DNA of 64,000 nucleotides from Candidatus Poribacteria bacterium (GCA_965208675.1 OZ242351.1:3968001-4032000); one strand, 5' to 3'; shown: positions 32,871-42,025, counted from the stretch's first letter. Program-made: numbers and translations. Notes: a model not told the origin generated them from the letters alone.

Positions 32871-33918
32871 GAGGAAAACCGTGCATATTCTAAGAGTCTG
32901 CCTCGCGGCGCTCTTGCTAGTTGCCGCGCTCTCATGCGAGCGGGAACTGGAGGTCGCCGATTTCAAAGATGATTTCGGAAATTACCAACCGGAACTAAAA
33001 GTTGAGGGTTTGCTTGACTATGATGCTCCGGAAAATTCCGTCATTCGGATTATCAGAACCGAGGCGATTGCGGAATCTGATGTGTTCGACGGAATTGACA
33101 ATGACGGAGACGGCGAAATTGACGAGTATGATGAGACGCTCCCGCTTATTCAGGATACAACGGCAACCGTCACTGTGACGAATTTAAATTCAGGGGAGGC
33201 ATACGAATTCCTGTACGTTACGCTGGCGGAGGAGTTGTTCTATCGGGAATTTCATGATGATTCCCCCCGCCTAGCTGGAAGAAGGGTTTATGGCGATGGC
33301 GGCTACAAACCAAAAAGTGCAGACGGTTTTCAGGTGGAACTCTTTGCCCAATATCGTTTGGAAATCTTTTCCGAAGCCTTCGACCAGACAATTACCGGCG
33401 TGACGACAGTCTATCCGCCGGTTGAATTCATCGACATTGATACCCTCTCAATCCTTAACGGCGGCCGCATAACGCTGGATAGAAATGTCGAAAAGACTAT
33501 CTACTGGCGTTCAGACTTGGAGGTGACTTCATACTTCGTTACCGTTGTCACCGTATTTGAATTGGACAACGTATTTCTTGAAGAAGAGCTATTCCTTGAG
33601 GACCCGCAACTCCATGAGGACGAACGGTTCGTCGAATCTGTCGATTCGTTCTCACTGTCCAGGGACAAAGATTTGACAGAACAGCACGGAGTCTCAATCG
33701 GCAAAGAGAGTTTCTTTGTGGGGCGGGAGGCTAATGCCGGCAAAACCTTGTCAATAATCGTCGACGGGCTAAGCCCGGAATATGGGCGTTACATCTTTTC
33801 GGCGTTGCCGCTGAACGACGCGCAGAGATCCAACCTTCGCGATCAAGACGGAAAACCCGTCATGGGCGCCTTCGGCGCAACCGCGTCAAACAGAATACAA
33901 GTGGAAATCGAAGAGTAA
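32860..33918 (+). CDS. Lipoprotein partner of the TBDR (DUF4249-like position)
   Basis: AALSC lipobox, acidic DGIDNDGDGEIDE metal-binding-like motif, terminal MGAFG; overlaps the TBDR stop. Confidence 0.7.
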   Translation: MSSKRKTVHILRVCLAALLLVAALSCERELEVADFKDDFGNYQPELKVEGLLDYDAPENSVIRIIRTEAIAESDVFDGIDNDGDGEIDEYDETLPLIQDTTATVTVTNLNSGEAYEFLYVTLAEELFYREFHDDSPRLAGRRVYGDGGYKPKSADGFQVELFAQYRLEIFSEAFDQTITGVTTVYPPVEFIDIDTLSILNGGRITLDRNVEKTIYWRSDLEVTSYFVTVVTVFELDNVFLEEELFLEDPQLHEDERFVESVDSFSLSRDKDLTEQHGVSIGKESFFVGREANAGKTLSIIVDGLSPEYGRYIFSALPLNDAQRSNLRDQDGKPVMGAFGATASNRIQVEIEE

Positions 33919-33926
33919 TACTTTTC

Positions 33927-34108
33927 GGTTCTTGTCGGTTGGGTAGAGCGATCAACCGACCGAATAGGGAGGGATCAACCGAGTGAATAACGAGGGCGAT
34001 AGTCTTATCCGAATGGTTTGCGATAAACCAAAAACTCCGCAATACCCAAAAGCGTTGGCTTTCGCTCCACCACATTACTTACCAAACAATTGATGCATAC
34101 GATCCAAT
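33927..34108 (+). repeat. GTAG-REP/REPIN-like element E1 (right end truncated)
   Basis: GTTCTTGTCGGTTGGGTAGAGCGATCAACCGACCGAAT...CCCAAAAGCGTTGGCTTTCGCT. Confidence 0.8.
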
Positions 34109-34555
34109 TTCTAAATACCCCCCTGATAAGGGGGGCTAGGGGGTTGCCACTCTTTTTTATTCGGATAGCGCTTTTCAGATTAAAGCTAGCCAATCCATAA
34201 GCCATCCAAGGGAATTGTCAGCCTCTACCCCATTGTAGGCGGTGAATCTTGCCCCGCAAAGTAGTAGGCACACTCCGTGTGCCGTAATCTTCTTTGAAAT
34301 CACACTACCCATACAATACACCATAACCGCGCAATCTAGCGATTGAATAGGGCGCAATAGTCGTCGGCTCCTGTATCCTGTAGGAGCGATCTCCGAATCG
34401 CGGCACTTATTTGAAACCGAGTTTTTTTCTTCAAAACTCGGTTTCTCCTAATCCTAATTGCAGTCCGAATCTCAGATTTAATAGATTCTAACGTGAATTC
34501 GGCCTGAACAATGTCTCAGACGAAATCGTAATCTATCCGACAGGAGTTGAATACT
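34108..34555 (+). repeat. About 450-bp upstream module (copy at 37797..38241; 3' part also at 35614..35798)
   Basis: Contains CCCCTGATAAGGGGG, GTAGGCACACTCCGTGTGCC, GTAGGAGCGATCTCCGAATCGCGG and the hairpin GAAACCGAGTTTT..AAAACTCGGTTTC. Confidence 0.85.
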
Positions 34556-35311
34556 ATGCCAATCAAAACTTTCCGATTCGTGATTGTTCTCTTGGGAACC
34601 GTCGCTGTGTTTGTGCGAATGTGTATCGCTGGTACGTGGATAGACGATTTCAGTGACCGAACCCTTCGAGATTGGGAAGGCGGTCTAATAAATGACGAGG
34701 TTAGCGCAGGTGTTGTTGGTGGACACTTCTATTATAGAGGAAAAAATGAACGAGCAGGTTATTATATGAAAAATTGGGCATTAGGGAAAATCCAAGATTT
34801 TTCGCTCGAGTTGAAGTTTATGGTTAGAGACCTCCGAGTCCCAGAGCGGTGTTCTTGGACTATTAATTATGACTCATTTAACGTAGAAACGCTGAATCGC
34901 AACGGGCTGATGGGCTTTTTGTGGTATCCCAATTTTGAGAAACCCAACATTATGGATGTTACAATTGATCGCTTCGAGCGGGAGGGGCACGCCTGGATTC
35001 CACAGACCGCTGCAATAGACAGCTTCGCATTCGAAGAAAAGGTCTGGTACACATTGCGGATTGAACGCGAAGGAAACCAATACACTTTTTCGATGGGCGA
35101 TTTGATTTTATTCGCAGAAGATGATACAGTGCAGATGGGTACGATTGAGCTGAGATTTTATGAACGGAATACCATCTGGTTGGATGATTTTACAGTGACC
35201 GGCCCCGATGTTCCGAATGGCGGACCTGGCTTTTTGGGAGTCAATCCATTGGCAGAACAATTAACGACGATGTGGGGAAAGCTGAAAGCACAGAACTGGC
35301 AGTTCTTGTAG
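34556..35311 (+). CDS. Secreted beta-sandwich (ConA/DUF1080-like) protein, paralog P1
   Basis: Signal peptide, GTWIDDFSD, WYTLRIEREGN, IWLDDFTVTGPDVP, C-terminal VNPLAEQLTTMWGKLK; AGGAG RBS. Confidence 0.8.
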   Translation: MPIKTFRFVIVLLGTVAVFVRMCIAGTWIDDFSDRTLRDWEGGLINDEVSAGVVGGHFYYRGKNERAGYYMKNWALGKIQDFSLELKFMVRDLRVPERCSWTINYDSFNVETLNRNGLMGFLWYPNFEKPNIMDVTIDRFEREGHAWIPQTAAIDSFAFEEKVWYTLRIEREGNQYTFSMGDLILFAEDDTVQMGTIELRFYERNTIWLDDFTVTGPDVPNGGPGFLGVNPLAEQLTTMWGKLKAQNWQFL

Positions 35312-35615
35312 GTTGGGTAGAGCGATCAACCGACCGAATAGGGAGGGATCAACTGAGTGAATAGCGAAGGCGATAGTCTTGACCGGCAACCAAAACGACT
35401 ACCAAACGAAAAATCCGTCCCATTTACGCGAAAACTCCGCCGTTTATCATGGATTAAATTATCATCGTATTGACGCTATCACTAGCCTATCCAAACGTCC
35501 CAAAAGCGTTGGGTTCGCTACACCTTAACAATTTCAGCACATATTCCAATACCGAAATCCATTGGACATTATTCGCGTCTTTCATTTAATCCGCTTAACC
35601 CAACCTACAAAAACT
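35301..35615. mobile_element. REPIN/MITE-like element E2
   Basis: Terminal IRs AGTTCTTGTAGGTTGGGTAGAGCG ... CGCTTAACCCAACCTACAAAAACT. Confidence 0.8.
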
Positions 35616-35798
35616 GTATCCTATAGGAGCGATCTCCGAATCGCGGTACTCATTTGAAACCTAGTTTTTTCTTGAAAACTCGGTTTCTCCTAATCCTAAT
35701 TGCAGTCCGATTCTCAGATTTAATAGATTCTAGCGTGAATTCAACCTGAACAATGACACAGACGAAATCGTAATCTTTTCGATAGGAGTTGAAATACT

Positions 35799-36542
35799 AT
35801 GCCAATCAAAACTTTCCGATTCATGGTTGTTCTCTTTGTAACCGTCGTTTTGTTTGGACGAATGTGTATCGCCGGTACGTGGATAGACGATTTCAGTGAC
35901 CCAACCCTTCGAGATTGGGAGGGCAGTCGAATAAATGTCGGGTTTAACACAGGTGTTGTTGATGGACACTTCTATTATAGAGGAACAAATCAACACGTTA
36001 ATGATATGGAGAATATTGCATTAGGGAAAATCCAAGATTTTTCGCTCGAGTTGAAATTTATGATTAGAAACCTCCGAGTTCCAGAGTATAGTTTTTGGAC
36101 TATTGAATATTCTTCATTTAACGAAGAAACGTGGAATTACGACGGGATTATGCAATTTTTGTGGTATCCCCAAGGGGAACCCAAAATTAACATTATGGAT
36201 GTTACAATTGATTGCTTCGAGCAGGAGGGGGACGCCTTTTTTCCACAGACCGCTGCAATAGACAGCTTTGCATTCGAAGAAAAGGTCTGGTACACGTTGA
36301 GGATTGCTCGCGAAGGAAACCAATACACTTTTTCGATGGGCGATGTTAGCTTATTCACAGAAGATGATACAGTGCCTATGGGGACGATTGAGTTGTCCTT
36401 TCATGGACGGAATACCATCTGGTTGGATGATTTTATCGTGACCGGCCCCGATGTGCCGAATGGCGGTCCAGGCTATTTGGGAGTCAATCCATTGGCAGAA
36501 CAATTAACGACGATGTGGGGAAGGCTCAAAGCACAGAACTGA
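35799..36542 (+). CDS. Secreted beta-sandwich protein, paralog P2
   Basis: Colinear with P1 and P3. Confidence 0.8.
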   Translation: MPIKTFRFMVVLFVTVVLFGRMCIAGTWIDDFSDPTLRDWEGSRINVGFNTGVVDGHFYYRGTNQHVNDMENIALGKIQDFSLELKFMIRNLRVPEYSFWTIEYSSFNEETWNYDGIMQFLWYPQGEPKINIMDVTIDCFEQEGDAFFPQTAAIDSFAFEEKVWYTLRIAREGNQYTFSMGDVSLFTEDDTVPMGTIELSFHGRNTIWLDDFIVTGPDVPNGGPGYLGVNPLAEQLTTMWGRLKAQN

Positions 36543-36651
36543 CCGAATCCGTTTTCCCGTCTTCCGAGCTTGCTATTACCCACAAGTCTCTGGAGTCAAA
36601 CGCCGTCTATGTTGGGGCTAAGAACGACTGTTCATTTCGGTATGGTGTAAA

Positions 36652-36706
36652 CTGTGGGAAGGACATCCCTGTCCCGATAATCAGGGCTAGGAAGCCCTTC
36701 CCACAG
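36652..36706. repeat. Inverted REP doublet of a second family
   Basis: CTGTGGGAAGGACATCCCTGTCCCGA-taa-TCAGGGCTAGGAAGCCCTTCCCACAG. Confidence 0.65.
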
Positions 36707-36715
36707 GAGCTTCAC

Positions 36716-37012
36716 AGTTCTTGTAGGTTGGGTTGAGCGGACTTCACCAAATGATGTACAATTTCACGTTTTGCTCTAGAAGTCTAACGACGTCCAAGAT
36801 CCGATGGACAGAGCGTAACCCAACGATCAACCGAGCGAATAGCGAAGGCGATAGTTTTATCCGAATGGCTTCCGATAAACCAAAAACTCCGCAATACCCA
36901 AAAGCGTTGGGTTCGCTACACCTTAACAATTTCAGCACATATTCCAATACCGAAATCCATTGGACATTTTTGCGTCTTACATTTAATCCGCTTAACTCAA
37001 CCTACAAAAACT
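36716..37012. mobile_element. REPIN/MITE-like element E3 (two complete REP arms)
   Basis: GTAGGTTGGGTTGAGCGGA-70nt-AGCGTAACCCAAC ... GTTGGGTTCGCT-69nt-TCCGCTTAACTCAACCTAC. Confidence 0.8.
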
Positions 37013-37013
37013 T

Positions 37014-37757
37014 ATGGAAAGTACATCAATGCCCACCCGTGTTTTAGTGAATGGAGCCTCAGGTAGAATGGGACAGGTTGCGATAGAGGCAGTTAATCTT
37101 GATGGCGGTCTGGAACTGGCGGGAACGGGACATCGAGGAGACGACCTATTATCCCTGATTGAGATAACTAATCCCGATGTTGTGTTGGACTTTACAACAG
37201 CAACGGTTGTCTTTGAAAACACCGCAACTATCATCAAAGCAGGCGTGCACCCCGTAATCGGAACAAGTGGCTTGTTGGAAGCCCAAGTTGAAAAGTTGGT
37301 TGCGTTGTGTGAACAGCAGCGACTAGGAGGCGTAATCGTGCCGAACTTTTCTATTTCTGCTGTGTTGATGATGAAGTTTGCAAAGCATGCGGCGCGTTAC
37401 TTTGACAGAGTTGAAATAATTGAGCGTCATCATGATGAGAAAAAAGATTCGCCTTCGGGCACAGCCATAAGAACCGCGGAGATGATGGCAGAGGATATTT
37501 CTTCACGAGATGATATTGAGGAGGAAGCAACGATTCCGGGGGTGAGAGGTGCGCTCTATCAGGGGATTTCAATACACTCGATACGGTTGCCCGGTCTGGT
37601 TGCGCATCAGGAGGTTCTTTTTGGCGGACCGGGCCAATTGCTAACCATAAAAAGTGATCTTATCAACCGAGATGCATTTAGTCCGGGGATTTGCCTTGCC
37701 TGCAAGGAAGTCGTAAACTTAAACGAATTGAAATGCGGTCTGGAACAATTTTTATAA
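37014..37757 (+). CDS. dapB: 4-hydroxy-tetrahydrodipicolinate reductase
   Basis: GASGRMG, DFT, VIGTSG, PNFS, EIIERHHDEKKDSPSGTA, HSIRLPG. Confidence 0.96.
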   Translation: MESTSMPTRVLVNGASGRMGQVAIEAVNLDGGLELAGTGHRGDDLLSLIEITNPDVVLDFTTATVVFENTATIIKAGVHPVIGTSGLLEAQVEKLVALCEQQRLGGVIVPNFSISAVLMMKFAKHAARYFDRVEIIERHHDEKKDSPSGTAIRTAEMMAEDISSRDDIEEEATIPGVRGALYQGISIHSIRLPGLVAHQEVLFGGPGQLLTIKSDLINRDAFSPGICLACKEVVNLNELKCGLEQFL

Positions 37758-37758
37758 G

Positions 37759-37797
37759 AGTTCTTATAGGTTGGGTAGAGCGATCAACCGACCGAAT
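37759..37797 (+). repeat. Element E4 (left arm only), starting 2 nt after the dapB stop
   Basis: AGTTCTTATAGGTTGGGTAGAGCGATCAACCGACCGAAT. Confidence 0.8.
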
Positions 37798-38241
37798 TTT
37801 TAAATTCCTCCCTGATAAGGGGGGCTAGGGGGGTTGCCACTCTTTTTTATTCGTTTATCGTACTTCAGAATGAAGTTCCCCGATCCATAAGCCGTCGAAG
37901 GTCATTGTCAGACGCTACCCCATTGTAAGAGGGGCATCTTCCCCCGCAAAGTAGTAGGCACACTCCGTGTGCCGTAATCTTCTGTGAAATCACACTACCC
38001 ATTCACCGCAACCGCGCAATCAAGCGATCGAAAAGGGCGCAATAGTTGTCGGCTCCTGTATCCTGTAGGAGCGATCTCCGAATCGCGGCACTTATTTGAA
38101 ACCGAGTTTTTTTCTTCAAAACTCGGTTTCTCCTAATCCTAATTGCATCCCGATTCTCGGATTTATTAGATTCTAACGTGAATTCAGCCTGAACAATGAC
38201 ACAGACGAAATCGTAACCCTTTAGACAGGAGTTGAAATACT
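37797..38241 (+). repeat. Second copy of the upstream module
   Basis: Colinear with 34108..34555. Confidence 0.85.
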
Positions 38242-38988
38242 ATGCCAATCAGAATATTCCGATTCATGATTGTTCTCTTCGTAACCGTCTTTGTGTTTGG
38301 ACGAATTTGTATCGCCGGGACGTGGATTGACGATTTCAGTGACCGAACCCTTAGAGATTGGGGGGGCGGTCGAAGAAATCACGAGTTTAGCACAGGTGTT
38401 GTTGGTGGACACTTCTATTATAGAGGGATAGTTGAACAAGCATTTTGTCATATGGAGAATAGGGGATTAGGGAAAATCCAAGACTTTTCGCTCCAGTTGA
38501 AGTTTATGGTTAGAAACCTCCGAGACCTACGGCAGGGTTTTTTGACTATTGATTATTCTTCATTTAACGAAGAAACGTGGAATACCGACGGGATTATGCA
38601 ATTTTCGTGGTATCCCCAAGGGGAACCCAAAATTAACATTATGGATGTTACAATTGATTGCTTCGAGCAGGAGGGGGACGCCTTTTTTCCACAGACCGCT
38701 GCAATAGACAGCTTTGCATTCGAAGAAAAGGTCTGGTACACGTTGAGGATTGCTCGCGAAGGAAACCAATACACTTTTTCGATGGGCGATGTTATATTAT
38801 TCGCAGAAGATGATTCAGTGTCGATGGGTACGATTGACCTGTTATTTTTTGGAAGGTGTACCGTCTGGTTGGATGATTTTACCGTGACCGGCCCCGATGT
38901 GCCGAATGGCGGGCCTGGCTTTTTGGGAGTCAATCCATTGGCAGAACAATTAACGACGATGTGGGGAAAGCTGAAAGCACGGAACTGA
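38242..38988 (+). CDS. Secreted beta-sandwich protein, paralog P3
   Basis: Colinear with P1 and P2. Confidence 0.8.
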   Translation: MPIRIFRFMIVLFVTVFVFGRICIAGTWIDDFSDRTLRDWGGGRRNHEFSTGVVGGHFYYRGIVEQAFCHMENRGLGKIQDFSLQLKFMVRNLRDLRQGFLTIDYSSFNEETWNTDGIMQFSWYPQGEPKINIMDVTIDCFEQEGDAFFPQTAAIDSFAFEEKVWYTLRIAREGNQYTFSMGDVILFAEDDSVSMGTIDLLFFGRCTVWLDDFTVTGPDVPNGGPGFLGVNPLAEQLTTMWGKLKARN

Positions 38989-38989
38989 C

Positions 38990-39234
38990 AGTTCTTGTAG
39001 GTTGGATAGAGCGATCAACCGACCGAATAGGGAGGGATCAACTGAGTGAATAACGAGGGCGATAGTCTTTTCTTGCCTTATCCGTATCGCTTCCGATAAA
39101 CCAAAAGCTCCGCGATACCCAAAAGCGTTGGGTTCGCTACACCTTAACAATTTCAGCACATATTCAAATACCGATATTCATTGGCCATTTTTCGCGTCTT
39201 TCATTTAATCCGCTTAACCCAACCTACAAAAACT
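38990..39234. mobile_element. REPIN/MITE-like element E5
   Basis: AGTTCTTGTAGGTTGGATAGAGCG ... CGCTTAACCCAACCTACAAAAACT. Confidence 0.8.
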
Positions 39235-39338
39235 CGGTGTCTCCTAACCAACGTCCGCCTTTCCCGCTCAATTTCCCACCTAAAGTCCAACCTAGACCTT
39301 TACCCAATTGTCGGTTCAACGGTTGCCCAAAAAGGCAC

Positions 39339-39367
39339 TTGATAATTGTGTTGCTTTAAGCTACAAT
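39339..39367 (+). promoter_or_regulatory. TA operon promoter with overlapping imperfect palindrome
   Basis: TTGATA-17 nt-TACAAT; ATTGT...ACAAT inverted repeat. Confidence 0.6.
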
Positions 39368-39377
39368 ATAGGAAATC

Positions 39378-39635
39378 ATGTATACGGTTCGCTATCGAGC
39401 AGGCGTAGCAAAGATGCTCCAGCGTATGCCGCGGAACGTCGCTAAAACCGTTGTACGTAAGATTGACCAACTTGCTGAGTCGCCTTATGCGCCGAACAAA
39501 AATGTAACGCGTTTAAAGGGTGAACGAGGATACCGGCTCAGAGTAGGTGATTGGCGTGTGTTATATGAGATTCGGGACAATAACCTCGTCATCGAAATTA
39601 TCAAAATCGGACCAAGAGGAGGCGTGTATCAATGA
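39378..39635 (+). CDS. RelE/ParE family toxin
   Basis: LKGERGYRLRVGDWRVLY..IGPRGGVY. Confidence 0.9.
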   Translation: MYTVRYRAGVAKMLQRMPRNVAKTVVRKIDQLAESPYAPNKNVTRLKGERGYRLRVGDWRVLYEIRDNNLVIEIIKIGPRGGVYQ

Positions 39636-39991
39636 ATGTTGAGACCGTCGAAAGACAAGGAGTGGAATATGTCCTTGTACCGAGAGTACAGTACAATCAG
39701 CTCTTAGAAGATGCGGAGATGCTGAGAGACATTAGAGAGTTCCGTGAAGCAAAAGACGCTGGCGAGGAAACCTACCCGAGTGAAGTGATTAACCGGCTGA
39801 TTCTAAATGAGGAGAGTCCAATACGGGTTTATCGAGACTATCGGGGACTCACGCAGCAGCAACTCGCTGATAAGTGCGGGATTCAGCGCGCATATTTAGC
39901 AGAGATTGAAACCGGGCGCAAGGCCGGTTCCATTAAAACTTTGAAGACAATCGCCGCAGCGCTTGGCGTTGAACTAACCTCCATCTCATGA
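39632..39991 (+). CDS. XRE-family HTH antitoxin
   Basis: RGLTQQQLADKCGIQRAYLAEIETG; ATGA overlap with the toxin. Confidence 0.9.
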   Translation: MNVETVERQGVEYVLVPRVQYNQLLEDAEMLRDIREFREAKDAGEETYPSEVINRLILNEESPIRVYRDYRGLTQQQLADKCGIQRAYLAEIETGRKAGSIKTLKTIAAALGVELTSIS

Positions 39992-40165
39992 GGTGGAAAG
40001 TTTAATCGCTCTGAATTGGGAAAAGGTCGGGGATTCTCTCGTCTTTGCCGATTGGATTGGGTCGATCAAAAAGCCGGTAAGCCTGTCGCAACTGTCCACC
40101 CTTCATATTCGAGGATACGCGAAAGATTAAGATGAATTCCTTCGCAGTTATAGAAAGGTGCAATA

Positions 40166-40402
40166 ATGAGCCAAATTGTCGTAAATCCAGAAATTCTGGG
40201 TGGGAAACCAATTATCGAAAGCACTCGCCTCAGTGTAGAGCATGTGTTAGGGTTACTCGCGAGCGGCATGTCCCACACAGAGATCTTTGAAGCCTTCCCA
40301 GAGTTGAATGAAGAAAACCTTCAATTGGTGCTCGCGTATGCATCTCGGGCACTCCGTGATGAGGTGATAATCGATCTCCCAATCACCCATGGCGGGGTTT
40401 GA
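40166..40402 (+). CDS. DUF433 antitoxin
   Basis: IVVNPEILGGKPIIESTRLSV..GMSHTEIFEAFPEL. Confidence 0.9.
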   Translation: MSQIVVNPEILGGKPIIESTRLSVEHVLGLLASGMSHTEIFEAFPELNEENLQLVLAYASRALRDEVIIDLPITHGGV

Positions 40403-40404
40403 CA

Positions 40405-40473
40405 ATGCTACTCCCGCTTGTGACTGACATTAACATCACAGTGCCCGTCAGACAGCGACTGAATATGGATTAA
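40405..40473 (+). pseudogene. Possible N-terminal remnant of a DUF5615 PIN-like toxin
   Basis: MLLPLVTDINITVPVRQRL* begins 2 nt after the DUF433 stop and resembles the MxxLxDENI start of DUF5615. Confidence 0.4.
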
Positions 40474-40488
40474 ACCTGATTGAGAGCA

Positions 40489-40848
40489 AGTTCTTGTAGG
40501 TTGGGTAGAGCGGATTTATCCAAATCGGCGTCATTAACAAGTTACCGCTCCAAATTTCGAATGGTGTTTGGTAGAAATTCACGTGAAGCGAAACCCAACT
40601 CTTTTGAAAACTCCGGCAACCAAAACGACGACCAAACGAAAAACCCGTCCCATTTACCCAATCACTCCGTCGTTTTTCATTTTTCCTGTCGTCATCGTAG
40701 TGACCTTATCCCTCGTCTCCCGGGGCGTCCCAAAAGCGTTGGGTTTCGCTAGACGTGAGTTAACACCAACCATGTTGCATTTCTGGCGGTAAGAACTATC
40801 GCCCTCCCTATTCGGTCGGTTGATCGCTCTACCCAACCTACAAAAACT
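40489..40848. mobile_element. REPIN/MITE-like element E6 (two complete REP arms)
   Basis: GTAGGTTGGGTAGAGCGGA-72nt-AGCGAAACCCAAC ... GTTGGGTTTCGCT-74nt-CGCTCTACCCAACCTACAAAAACT. Confidence 0.8.
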
Positions 40849-40866
40849 GTCCAAAATAGAGCGTGA

Positions 40867-40895
40867 TTGACACCAAATTGCTTCTGACGTATAAT
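40867..40895 (+). promoter_or_regulatory. Consensus sigma70 promoter
   Basis: TTGACA-17 nt-TATAAT. Confidence 0.8.
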
Positions 40896-40916
40896 TGGTG
40901 ACTCTACTGCGGCAAT

Positions 40917-41900
40917 ATGTGCAGCGCACTCACCAATTATGGGAAGCAGATTATGGAATCTTGTGGCGTTTCAAGCGGGGACCTTGAATCCGCGCTCACG
41001 CATCTTTCCGAACACGGATACACCGTCATAGAAGGCGTGCTTAGCGGCGATGAAATCCAGCACTACCGAAGTTTTGCGGCGGAACTCTTTGAACGAGAAC
41101 GCGAGCATCCTTTCGAGCCGGAAGACGGTCCGGCGTTGCCGGCAGATGCCGAGATTGAAGCTTATCTGAAGGAGAGTTACCTAATCAGCACGGCGGAACA
41201 GGCGCGGCTCATGCGGCGAATCCGCCATACACGCGCTCAAAACCGCGGCACGCCGTGGCCCGTCGCCCCCTCAGACGTGGTTAAGAATTTCCTTCACCTC
41301 CCGACCCTGTTCGATCATGACAAGTCGCAGCGTATCTGGAACTTGGTCAACAAAGCCCCGGATTTCGGAAAACTGATAGAACATCCGGCGGTGCTTTCGT
41401 TGGCGCGGGCGGTTCTTGGGGACGATTGCGTGCTCGCCGACTGCAGCGCCACCAGTATTGGAGCGCGTACCGGCGAAGGCGGGGCATGGCATGTGGATGT
41501 GCCGCTCGGTCAGTTGCCGGAACCGCTGCCGGACTTTCCGCTGACCATCCAGAACGCTTGGATGCTAGATGCGTTTACAACGCGCAACGGGGCAACCCAG
41601 GTTGTTCCCAAAAGCCATCGCACCCGCAGAAAGCCCGCATGGGGCGCGCAGCAGGAGGACGGGAAGATTCTGACGGGACCTGCCGGCTCGGTGGCAATCT
41701 GGTTGTCAAACACATGGCACCGATCGGGGCCCAACGCAACCGGCAATCCCCGCTGGGCTATCCTCTGCTATTACTCCCGTTCATGGATAAAGCCGTTTAC
41801 CGATTTTACATCGTGCCTAGACCCGGCAATCGCGAAAACCTTCTCACCTGGTTTGCGGTATCTTCTAGGATTTTCCGCCAACGCCCCCGTGCGAGGATAG
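40917..41900 (+). CDS. Phytanoyl-CoA dioxygenase (PhyH) family Fe/2OG enzyme
   Basis: HGYTVIEGVL, WHVD, NGATQVVPKSH, GPAGS, WHRSGPN; start 40917 or 40953. Confidence 0.9.
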   Translation: MCSALTNYGKQIMESCGVSSGDLESALTHLSEHGYTVIEGVLSGDEIQHYRSFAAELFEREREHPFEPEDGPALPADAEIEAYLKESYLISTAEQARLMRRIRHTRAQNRGTPWPVAPSDVVKNFLHLPTLFDHDKSQRIWNLVNKAPDFGKLIEHPAVLSLARAVLGDDCVLADCSATSIGARTGEGGAWHVDVPLGQLPEPLPDFPLTIQNAWMLDAFTTRNGATQVVPKSHRTRRKPAWGAQQEDGKILTGPAGSVAIWLSNTWHRSGPNATGNPRWAILCYYSRSWIKPFTDFTSCLDPAIAKTFSPGLRYLLGFSANAPVRG

Positions 41901-42025
41901 ATGGAAATTTTATTTATCCATTTTAACTAGAAAACCACGAACTGTTTCATTGGCTGCTGATTGGGAAAATCTTGACTATACCACGGATTGATTTGGAAAT
42001 GCCAAATTCAGGGAGGAACTCAAAA

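Follow-up and report, generated by a model that had tools for sequence, protein, structure and literature searches.

A dispersed REP/REPIN-like repeat family in Candidatus Poribacteria with a long loop of conserved length and an associated RAYT

Repetitive extragenic palindromic (REP) sequences of the GTAG type have a stem of 5-13 bp and a loop that measures 2-20 nt in Table 1 of PMC3733652 and up to 27 nt in one loop type; their dimers join unlike partners, those of the enterobacterial GTAG-3 group being exclusively of differing loop lengths, and the survey set aside repeats whose loops were unusual, as far as its accessible sections describe it (PMC3733652). In Pseudomonas fluorescens SBW25, where doublets of inverted REPs form the elements called REPINs, the commonest inter-REP spacings are 71 and 110 bp, and the length and hairpin-forming capacity of the intervening sequence appear critical in the available sections of the study (PMC3116915). 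Here we analyse repeats in a 64,000-nt stretch of DNA (hereafter the window; GCA_965208675.1 OZ242351.1:3968001-4032000) from a Candidatus Poribacteria bacterium whose genome is a single contig of 4.89 Mb with 49% G+C. Six copies of the element, E1 to E6, sit between genes within window positions 33800-41200. They very probably belong to a dispersed REP/REPIN family of this genome, similar to bacterial interspersed mosaic elements (BIMEs) and presumably copied by a REP-associated tyrosine transposase (RAYT).

The basic unit is a REP hairpin composed of a 5' GTAG head, a stem of 7-8 bp (GTTGGGT/ACCCAAC) and a loop. It comes in a short form (loop of about 13 nt, unit of 29-34 nt) and a long form (about 70 nt between two AGCG words, unit of 99-104 nt), the complete long arm pair reading GTAGGTTGGGT-W-R-AGCG, about 70 nt, AGCG-(W)-AACCCAAC. 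A doublet of roughly 230-350 nt, with termini AGYTYTTGTAGG...CCTACAARAACT, consists of two units in inverted orientation that flank a spacer whose ends are palindromic, the common order being outer arm, loop A, inner arm, spacer (GCTTTT...AAAAGC), inner arm, loop B and outer arm. The arms pair in the minimum free energy (MFE) fold of 170 of the 204 long units of this genome, and among 114 distinct units of other genomes the variable stem position (GTTGGGT/ACCCAAC versus GTCGGGT/ACCCGAC) is T-A in 100, C-G in 13 and C-A in just one. The proposal, made from the window alone, that we are dealing with REP hairpins of the GTAG type is supported by the GTAG head and the compensatory changes in the stem.

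The exact 11-mer GTAGGTTGGGT occurs 270 times (128 + 142) in the genome, and 471 ends (214 + 257) are found when up to one mismatch is allowed, while a reversed-pattern control returned no hit in any of 41 genomes. The ends are dispersed along the whole chromosome, all 100-kb bins but three being occupied. Their profile displays a conserved 25-nt terminus from -7 to about +17 (AGYTYTT GTAGGTTGGGT WRAGCGG), with no conservation past position -8. The G, T, A and G at positions 0-3 are present in 447-455 of the 471 ends, partly by construction as these positions lie in the search motif, and flanking positions outside the motif are likewise conserved. Within 1500 nt of each other, 98 pairs of ends face head to head, the most frequent span being 260-263 nt. 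Only 10 of the 204 long units have their midpoint within an open reading frame (ORF) of at least 150 amino acids, though such ORFs represent 82% of the genome. Intergenic similarity in these genomes is owed largely to these repeats and is not to be taken for shared promoters or regulatory sites.

The most striking property of the family is the length of its loop. Unit length was measured wherever AACCCAAC (up to one mismatch) falls within 400 nt of an end, which was the case for 345 of the 471 ends. Units of 100-104 nt account for 203 of these (22, 52, 89, 33 and 7 by length), and there are minor classes of 24 units at 33-34 nt and 21 at 61-67 nt, the others being scattered between 20 and 400 nt. 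The other genomes yielded 177 units in 35 loci, with 47 of 29-33 nt, 90 of 99-104 nt and few in between; units of 95-103 nt also occur in the genomes of family f3. The two loci of the window's own family shown (L020 and L022) contain long units, some mixed with short ones, and four f2 loci beside the RAYT (L036, L038, L039 and L041) carry tandem short REPs with the arm words one base apart. The short units flanking the RAYT are of the form arm-T-arm and the long units of the form arm-70 nt-arm, the arms being common to both. The narrow distribution implied by the original prediction, along with its notion of cargo constrained in size and free in sequence, is borne out, and the broad spread of insert lengths that would have spoken against it was not found.

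At the same time, 69 of 87 long units from other genomes show less than 0.5 identity to each of the 204 units of the window's genome. Judged from the sequences compared, loop length is kept across the order while loop sequence turns over, and this combination of a fixed length with a replaced sequence argues for selection on length. Neutral decay would presumably have blurred the length.

Because length is conserved, the loops could be compared in register; between shuffled loops identity averages 0.33 (sd 0.038) and does not exceed 0.49. At an identity of at least 0.5, 197 of the 204 units fall in one network, and at 0.6 or more four large groups of 42, 37, 37 and 36 loops are resolved. Groups F0, F1 and F5 form a superfamily alpha (mutual identity 0.40-0.44) and groups F2, F4, F6 and F7 a superfamily beta (0.40-0.42), while group F3 (gamma) bears a weak likeness to all other groups; alpha and beta loops are at null identity. 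Linked by graded similarity, the loops are thus inherited, diverging parts of the repeat and not independent captures, falling into about three diverged superfamilies with no single detectable ancestor. Descent of all inserts from one ancestral sequence, raised beforehand as a possible objection, is thus shown only within superfamilies. The statement that the inserts share no sequence is true of the four in the window, which belong to different groups (one gamma, one alpha, one of a singleton type and one unit whose loop begins in a 33-nt module described below), but genome-wide the loops are not unrelated singletons. Doublets of two long units (n = 45) nearly all combine an alpha loop with a beta or gamma loop (14, 11, 6, 4 and so on by combination), only one of the 45 being homotypic, and left and right loops of a doublet are 0.35 identical, i.e. 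at the null level. Two further origins of the loop families were considered and rejected: as mutual inversions, forward versus reverse-complement identities were 0.33-0.39 against a null of 0.35, and as decayed copies of the 33-nt module, identities lay within the null.

A 180-amino-acid RAYT gene lies directly between copies of the repeat in two genomes of the same genus, G001 and G003. It scores 201.6 and 195.2 bits, respectively, with NF047646 (NCBIfam REP-associated tyrosine transposase; cut-off 80) and aligns over 166 residues with the Escherichia coli TnpA-REP (PDB 4ER8, E 5.9e-39). The alignment places LPDHLH (HLH) on LPEHMH (HMH) and YIHYNPVKHG on YIYINPVKHG of 4ER8, which we take to be the catalytic HUH and tyrosine motifs. 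Of 151 genomes from the order, 35 contain a homolog (E <= 1e-20). All 27 orthologous loci (at least 64% identity; three families) have a repeat end no more than 240 nt from the gene on one side, and 24 of them have another no more than 450 nt away on the opposite side, while three loci of paralogs with 43-45% identity have no adjacent repeat end. In low-copy genomes (G011, G012, G018 and G023, with 1-9 pattern hits) the copies adjoin the RAYT gene. More distant relatives in other phyla (35-56% identity) mostly have GTAG-headed repeated words of their own alongside. Adjacency of this kind is what marks out a RAYT together with its REPs, and this RAYT is conserved across the order, always among these repeats. 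Of the substrates that had been suggested, single-stranded DNA (ssDNA) with a length requirement is the reading nearest the evidence, given the flanking repeats in the relatives and the covarying stem.

The situation in the window's own genome is different. No ortholog of the cognate RAYT was found there, the best tblastn matches being 27-29% identical and belonging to other RAYTs. Four Y1-transposase-like genes are encoded, two of them RAYT-class genes above the NF047646 cut-off, and none has these repeat ends within 3 kb; the flanks of three carry other repeats, two of which are also present in the window. In the syntenic interval the neighbouring genes are retained and repeat ends are clustered, but nothing matches the RAYT gene. 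The nearest non-local neighbour of a loop has a median identity of 0.74, reaching at least 0.95 in only 3 of the 204. The approximately 470 ends are therefore probably for the most part an old, orphaned and immobile population.

Several observations weigh against copying by the RAYT. Mobility cannot be claimed in the window's genome, as the RAYT for this repeat is absent from it. The two members of the genus without the RAYT carry more ends (247 and 260) than the two with it (96 and 115), which is not what simple decay after loss of the enzyme would predict. The G003 doublet beside the RAYT has near-identical copies only in a local tandem array and so gives no sign of recent activity there either, and transposition was not seen, joints in contigs being only at the level of the arms with sides of 20-25 nt. 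No replichore orientation bias was detected (Fisher p 0.25-0.76), the minimum and maximum of the GC skew lying only 1.5 Mb apart so that origin and terminus are uncertain. Finally, the dominant loop of about 70 nt lies outside the range published for GTAG REPs in the sections available (PMC3733652), and because it exceeds 2-20 nt the long-loop repeat is to be regarded as a variant and not as a standard GTAG REP.

Contigs of four sequencing runs (of DNA or of unknown kind) covering 33800-41200 break at the repeats. Skips of 69-73 nt in contigs were considered as excisions and rejected, the matching sides being 20-22 nt with unknown letters in between, which points to other members of the family. 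No orthologous empty site was recovered in the genus, a DNA query spanning the DapB-like gene of the window (see below) matching only repeat ends. Elsewhere in the genome (C1:1190613-1191910) four copies of a 261-nt doublet with an 85-nt spacer are arranged in tandem with a period of 346 nt, and similar tandem arrays adjoin the RAYT in G001 and G003.

By analogy with the REP/RAYT family, the doublets would be non-autonomous elements that the single-copy RAYT, a Y1 HUH enzyme, copies by recognizing the GTAG head and stem in ssDNA. The loops would then be passenger sequence, free to diverge in all but length, which some constraint on copyability would keep close to 70 nt. One speculation as to that constraint, which we think rather unlikely to be right, is that the loop acts as a sequence-blind ruler, being wrapped by a tetramer of the single-stranded DNA-binding protein (SSB) and so bringing the arms together in the RAYT substrate. 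SSB tetramers have a 65-nt binding mode. If this were true, a loop could be copied only if it measured about 70 nt, binding one protein, or about 0-13 nt, binding none, which would account for the bimodal lengths and for loops lacking structure or sequence conservation, as well as for complete sequence turnover between genomes at constant length and for the equal-sized, unrelated loops within doublets.

A doubtful but still credible alternative to copying by a RAYT as the reason for the elements' form is that they serve the host, as terminators, stabilizers of mRNA 3' ends or binding sites of nucleoid proteins, the length of the loop reflecting that role; a RAYT origin would be compatible with it. 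Such roles have been proposed for E. coli BIMEs. Elements at the ends of genes fit this idea, one beginning in a stop codon (35309-35311) and others lying a few nt from stops or starts, as do the strongly extragenic placement and the large numbers that persist in two genomes without the RAYT. A host function is harder to reconcile with loops in which sequence, structure and phasing (no AA/TT periodicity, i.e. A-tract phasing, was detected) are all unconserved, with the occurrence of both orientations and with a copy number that ranges among relatives from 0-23 to 260.

Folding of the 70-nt insert into a functional structured RNA or ssDNA, which the original prediction had put forward, is very improbable. 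Constant length and a few conserved positions near the start of the loop (G at 18, A-rich at 27-30) are what it would expect, but a scan of 33000-42000 against Rfam at E <= 1 gave just two chance-level hits, both outside the elements, and the folding energy of the loops equals that of shuffled sequences (mean z -0.07, 4% below -2; 30 mononucleotide shuffles per unit). Nor was coherent covariation found in 32 dereplicated 102-nt units (out of 89 with exactly 102 nt), where the best column pair reached z 3.5 among about 4800 pairs and no stacked diagonal appeared.

We give slightly less weight still to a miniature inverted-repeat transposable element (MITE) mobilized by a DDE-type insertion sequence with the same termini. 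Inverted repeats some 25 nt long at the termini and a size of about 260 nt would suit such an element, whereas no target-site duplication was visible by eye among 87 listed pairs of 90-400 nt, no recurrent long element was noticed between ends 450-4000 nt apart (the many ordinary ORFs there were listed, not annotated against Pfam), and the GTAG head and RAYT adjacency match REPs.

Capture of spacer-like DNA, also put forward from the window, in which a ruler mechanism like that of CRISPR arrays would have taken up a piece of foreign or host DNA as each loop, is extremely improbable: it would explain why length is fixed although sequences differ greatly both inside a genome and from one genome to another, but the loops fall into families of 36-42 members that diverge by degrees, nearly all of them joined in one network, the doublets combine specific loop families, and E3, the only element compared with a phage collection (distant mode), had no match there. 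The idea that the repeats are integron attC sites or cassette boundaries has next to no chance of being correct, for although the arms GTTGGGT/ACCCAAC fit the attC core consensus (GTTRRRY/RYYYAAC) and genes alternate with elements at 34.5-41 kb, with a gene pair for a ParE-type toxin and an HTH protein and a gene for a DUF433 protein between E5 and E6, no integrase was found (best TIGR02249 score 41 bits, cut-off 265), the ends are spread over the chromosome, the order GTTGGGT...ACCCAAC is the reverse of that in an attC site, and the specific association with the RAYT accounts for the repeat.

Copying by a RAYT thus being the reading we prefer, the six elements of the window can be described in its terms (all on the plus strand). 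E1 (33927-34066) has a left REP arm at 33934-33950 whose head is mutated to GTCG, followed by 33-nt modules, a central block and an inner arm at 34054-34066; its right loop starts at 34067 and is interrupted by other repeats. E2 (35301-35615) is a complete doublet with a core of 301 nt (35308-35608), in which modules at 35325-35380 follow the left arm and a long unit of 101 nt on the minus strand (35508-35608), its loop belonging to family F0 (alpha), makes up the right half. Its GTAGG head contains the TAG stop (35309-35311) of the ORF at 34547-35311. E3 (36716-37012), a complete doublet as well (core 36723-37005, 283 nt), is composed of a left long unit (36723-36824, loop family F3, gamma), a centre with one module (36826-36858) and a central block, and a right long unit on the minus strand (36906-37005, family F0, alpha); folded as ssDNA, its outer arms pair (MFE -43.7 kcal/mol, z -4.3). 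Only the left terminus of E4 (37759-37797) is present, with an ATAGG head and the start of a module, the remainder being displaced by other repeats. E5 (38990-39234) is a doublet with a core of 231 nt (38997-39227), a left arm with modules and a right long unit on the minus strand (39127-39227, family F0, alpha). The doublet E6 (40489-40848; core 40496-40841, 346 nt) contains a left long unit of 104 nt (40496-40599) with the singleton loop type, a central block (40600-40737) and a right long unit, also of 104 nt, on the minus strand (40738-40841), the arm-proximal part of whose loop is a module (about 40791-40824).

In E3 the arm GTAGGTTGGGTTGAGCG lies at 36723-36739 and its partner, AGCG+TAACCCAAC, begins at 36812, while GTTGGGTTCGCT ends at 36917 and CGCTTAACTCAACCTAC occupies 36989-37005. 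In E6 the arm at 40496-40512 pairs with AGCGAAACCCAAC beginning at 40587, and GTTGGGTTTCGCT ends at 40750, with CGCTCTACCCAACCTAC at 40825-40841. By our definition of the arms, the inserts span 36740-36811 (72 nt), 36918-36988 (71 nt), 40513-40586 (74 nt) and 40751-40824 (74 nt). The fourth of these and the truncated one from 34067 had been placed exactly, and three boundaries of the others were 2 nt off. Recurrence of inserts and mixing of central blocks between elements were confirmed with the repeat finder (families D5, D8, D9, D11 and D13), so that the mosaic make-up proposed for the elements, with interchangeable central blocks, holds as well.

The 33-nt module, M (ATCAAC...GATAGTCTT), is present in 223 copies in the genome (up to 7 mismatches), 81 of them within 25 nt of REP arms. 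In the window it is located at 33951-34005, 35325-35380, 36826-36858, 39014-39070 and, in reverse, at about 40791-40824. It directly follows the G-rich ends of several repeat families, is also nested in its own copies and accounts for the unit classes of 61-67 nt and 97-98 nt. M resembles a tiny insertion element in its own right that prefers certain targets; we know of no enzyme for it.

Three other repeats accompany the elements. A second REP family (inverted CCCACAG/CTGTGGG-type hairpins) occurs at 36652-36706 and also flanks another RAYT gene of this genome (C1:3522656-3523069; 132 bits with NF047646). A classic short GTAG hairpin (GTAGTAGGCACAC...GTGTGCC) is found at 34262-34290 and 37950-37978, and on one side of a Y1-like gene (C1:2071896-2072132; 47 bits, below the RAYT cut-off). 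A short repeat (CCCCTGATAAGGGGGGCTAGGGGG...) at 34118-34150 and 37808-37840 interrupts E1 and E4.

Among the genes alongside are three paralogs of about 250 amino acids (34547-35311, 35799-36542 and 38242-38988) with a hydrophobic N-terminus and no Pfam match, each preceded by the same upstream cassette of about 230 nt and with REP doublets between them. In the first of them the TGA stop is gone, and the reading frame closes at the TAG in the REP head. A DapB-like gene with both Pfam domains (37014-37757) begins 9 nt past the E3 core. Its product was not found in the three genomes of the same genus, G001-G003, at E <= 1e-30, so that this gene may represent an accessory copy within a variable region.

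Few bacterial repeats are as common as those of REP/REPIN-RAYT systems, and the rules for what their transposases accept derive from short-loop hairpins of proteobacteria. The poribacterial loops are about five times longer than those described, belong with a conserved RAYT lineage in an uncultivated phylum of sponge symbionts, and have a length that is fixed across three families. They offer a natural test case for the substrate geometry of Y1/HUH enzymes and a clean example of selection on length alone, and the presence of genomes with and without the RAYT within one genus allows the fate of repeats after loss of the enzyme to be compared. No published description of this repeat was found in the literature searched, which did not cover subscription journals.

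Compared with E. coli BIMEs, as these are generally understood, the poribacterial elements share mosaic arms, exchangeable central blocks, an extra module (here of 33 nt) and dimers of unlike partners, but their motifs are unrelated in sequence. To our knowledge, no binding proteins are known for the poribacterial repeats. With the REPINs of SBW25, as far as the available sections describe them, they have in common a doublet of inverted REPs with a spacer, folding into a single ssDNA hairpin (E3) and sharply constrained spacing. They differ in that the SBW25 spacer pairs, with compensatory changes, while the 70-nt loops pair neither with themselves nor with each other, in that the doublets are heterotypic and in that the RAYT has been lost from the window's genome. 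With the GTAG REPs and their RAYTs, such as the E. coli REP and TnpA-REP, they share GTAG at the terminus, compensatory changes in a stem of 7-8 bp, inverted dimers, extragenic placement and, in the relatives, a single-copy RAYT flanked by its own repeats. The short poribacterial form, with its loop of about 13 nt, falls within the GTAG REP range, whereas, set against the GTAG REPs in the accessible sections of the survey (PMC3733652), the long form stands apart in a loop that is fixed in length, free in sequence and without self-pairing, and in its phylum, Candidatus Poribacteria. The repeat and its transposase constitute a REP/REPIN-RAYT system of a new lineage with a length-gauged giant loop.

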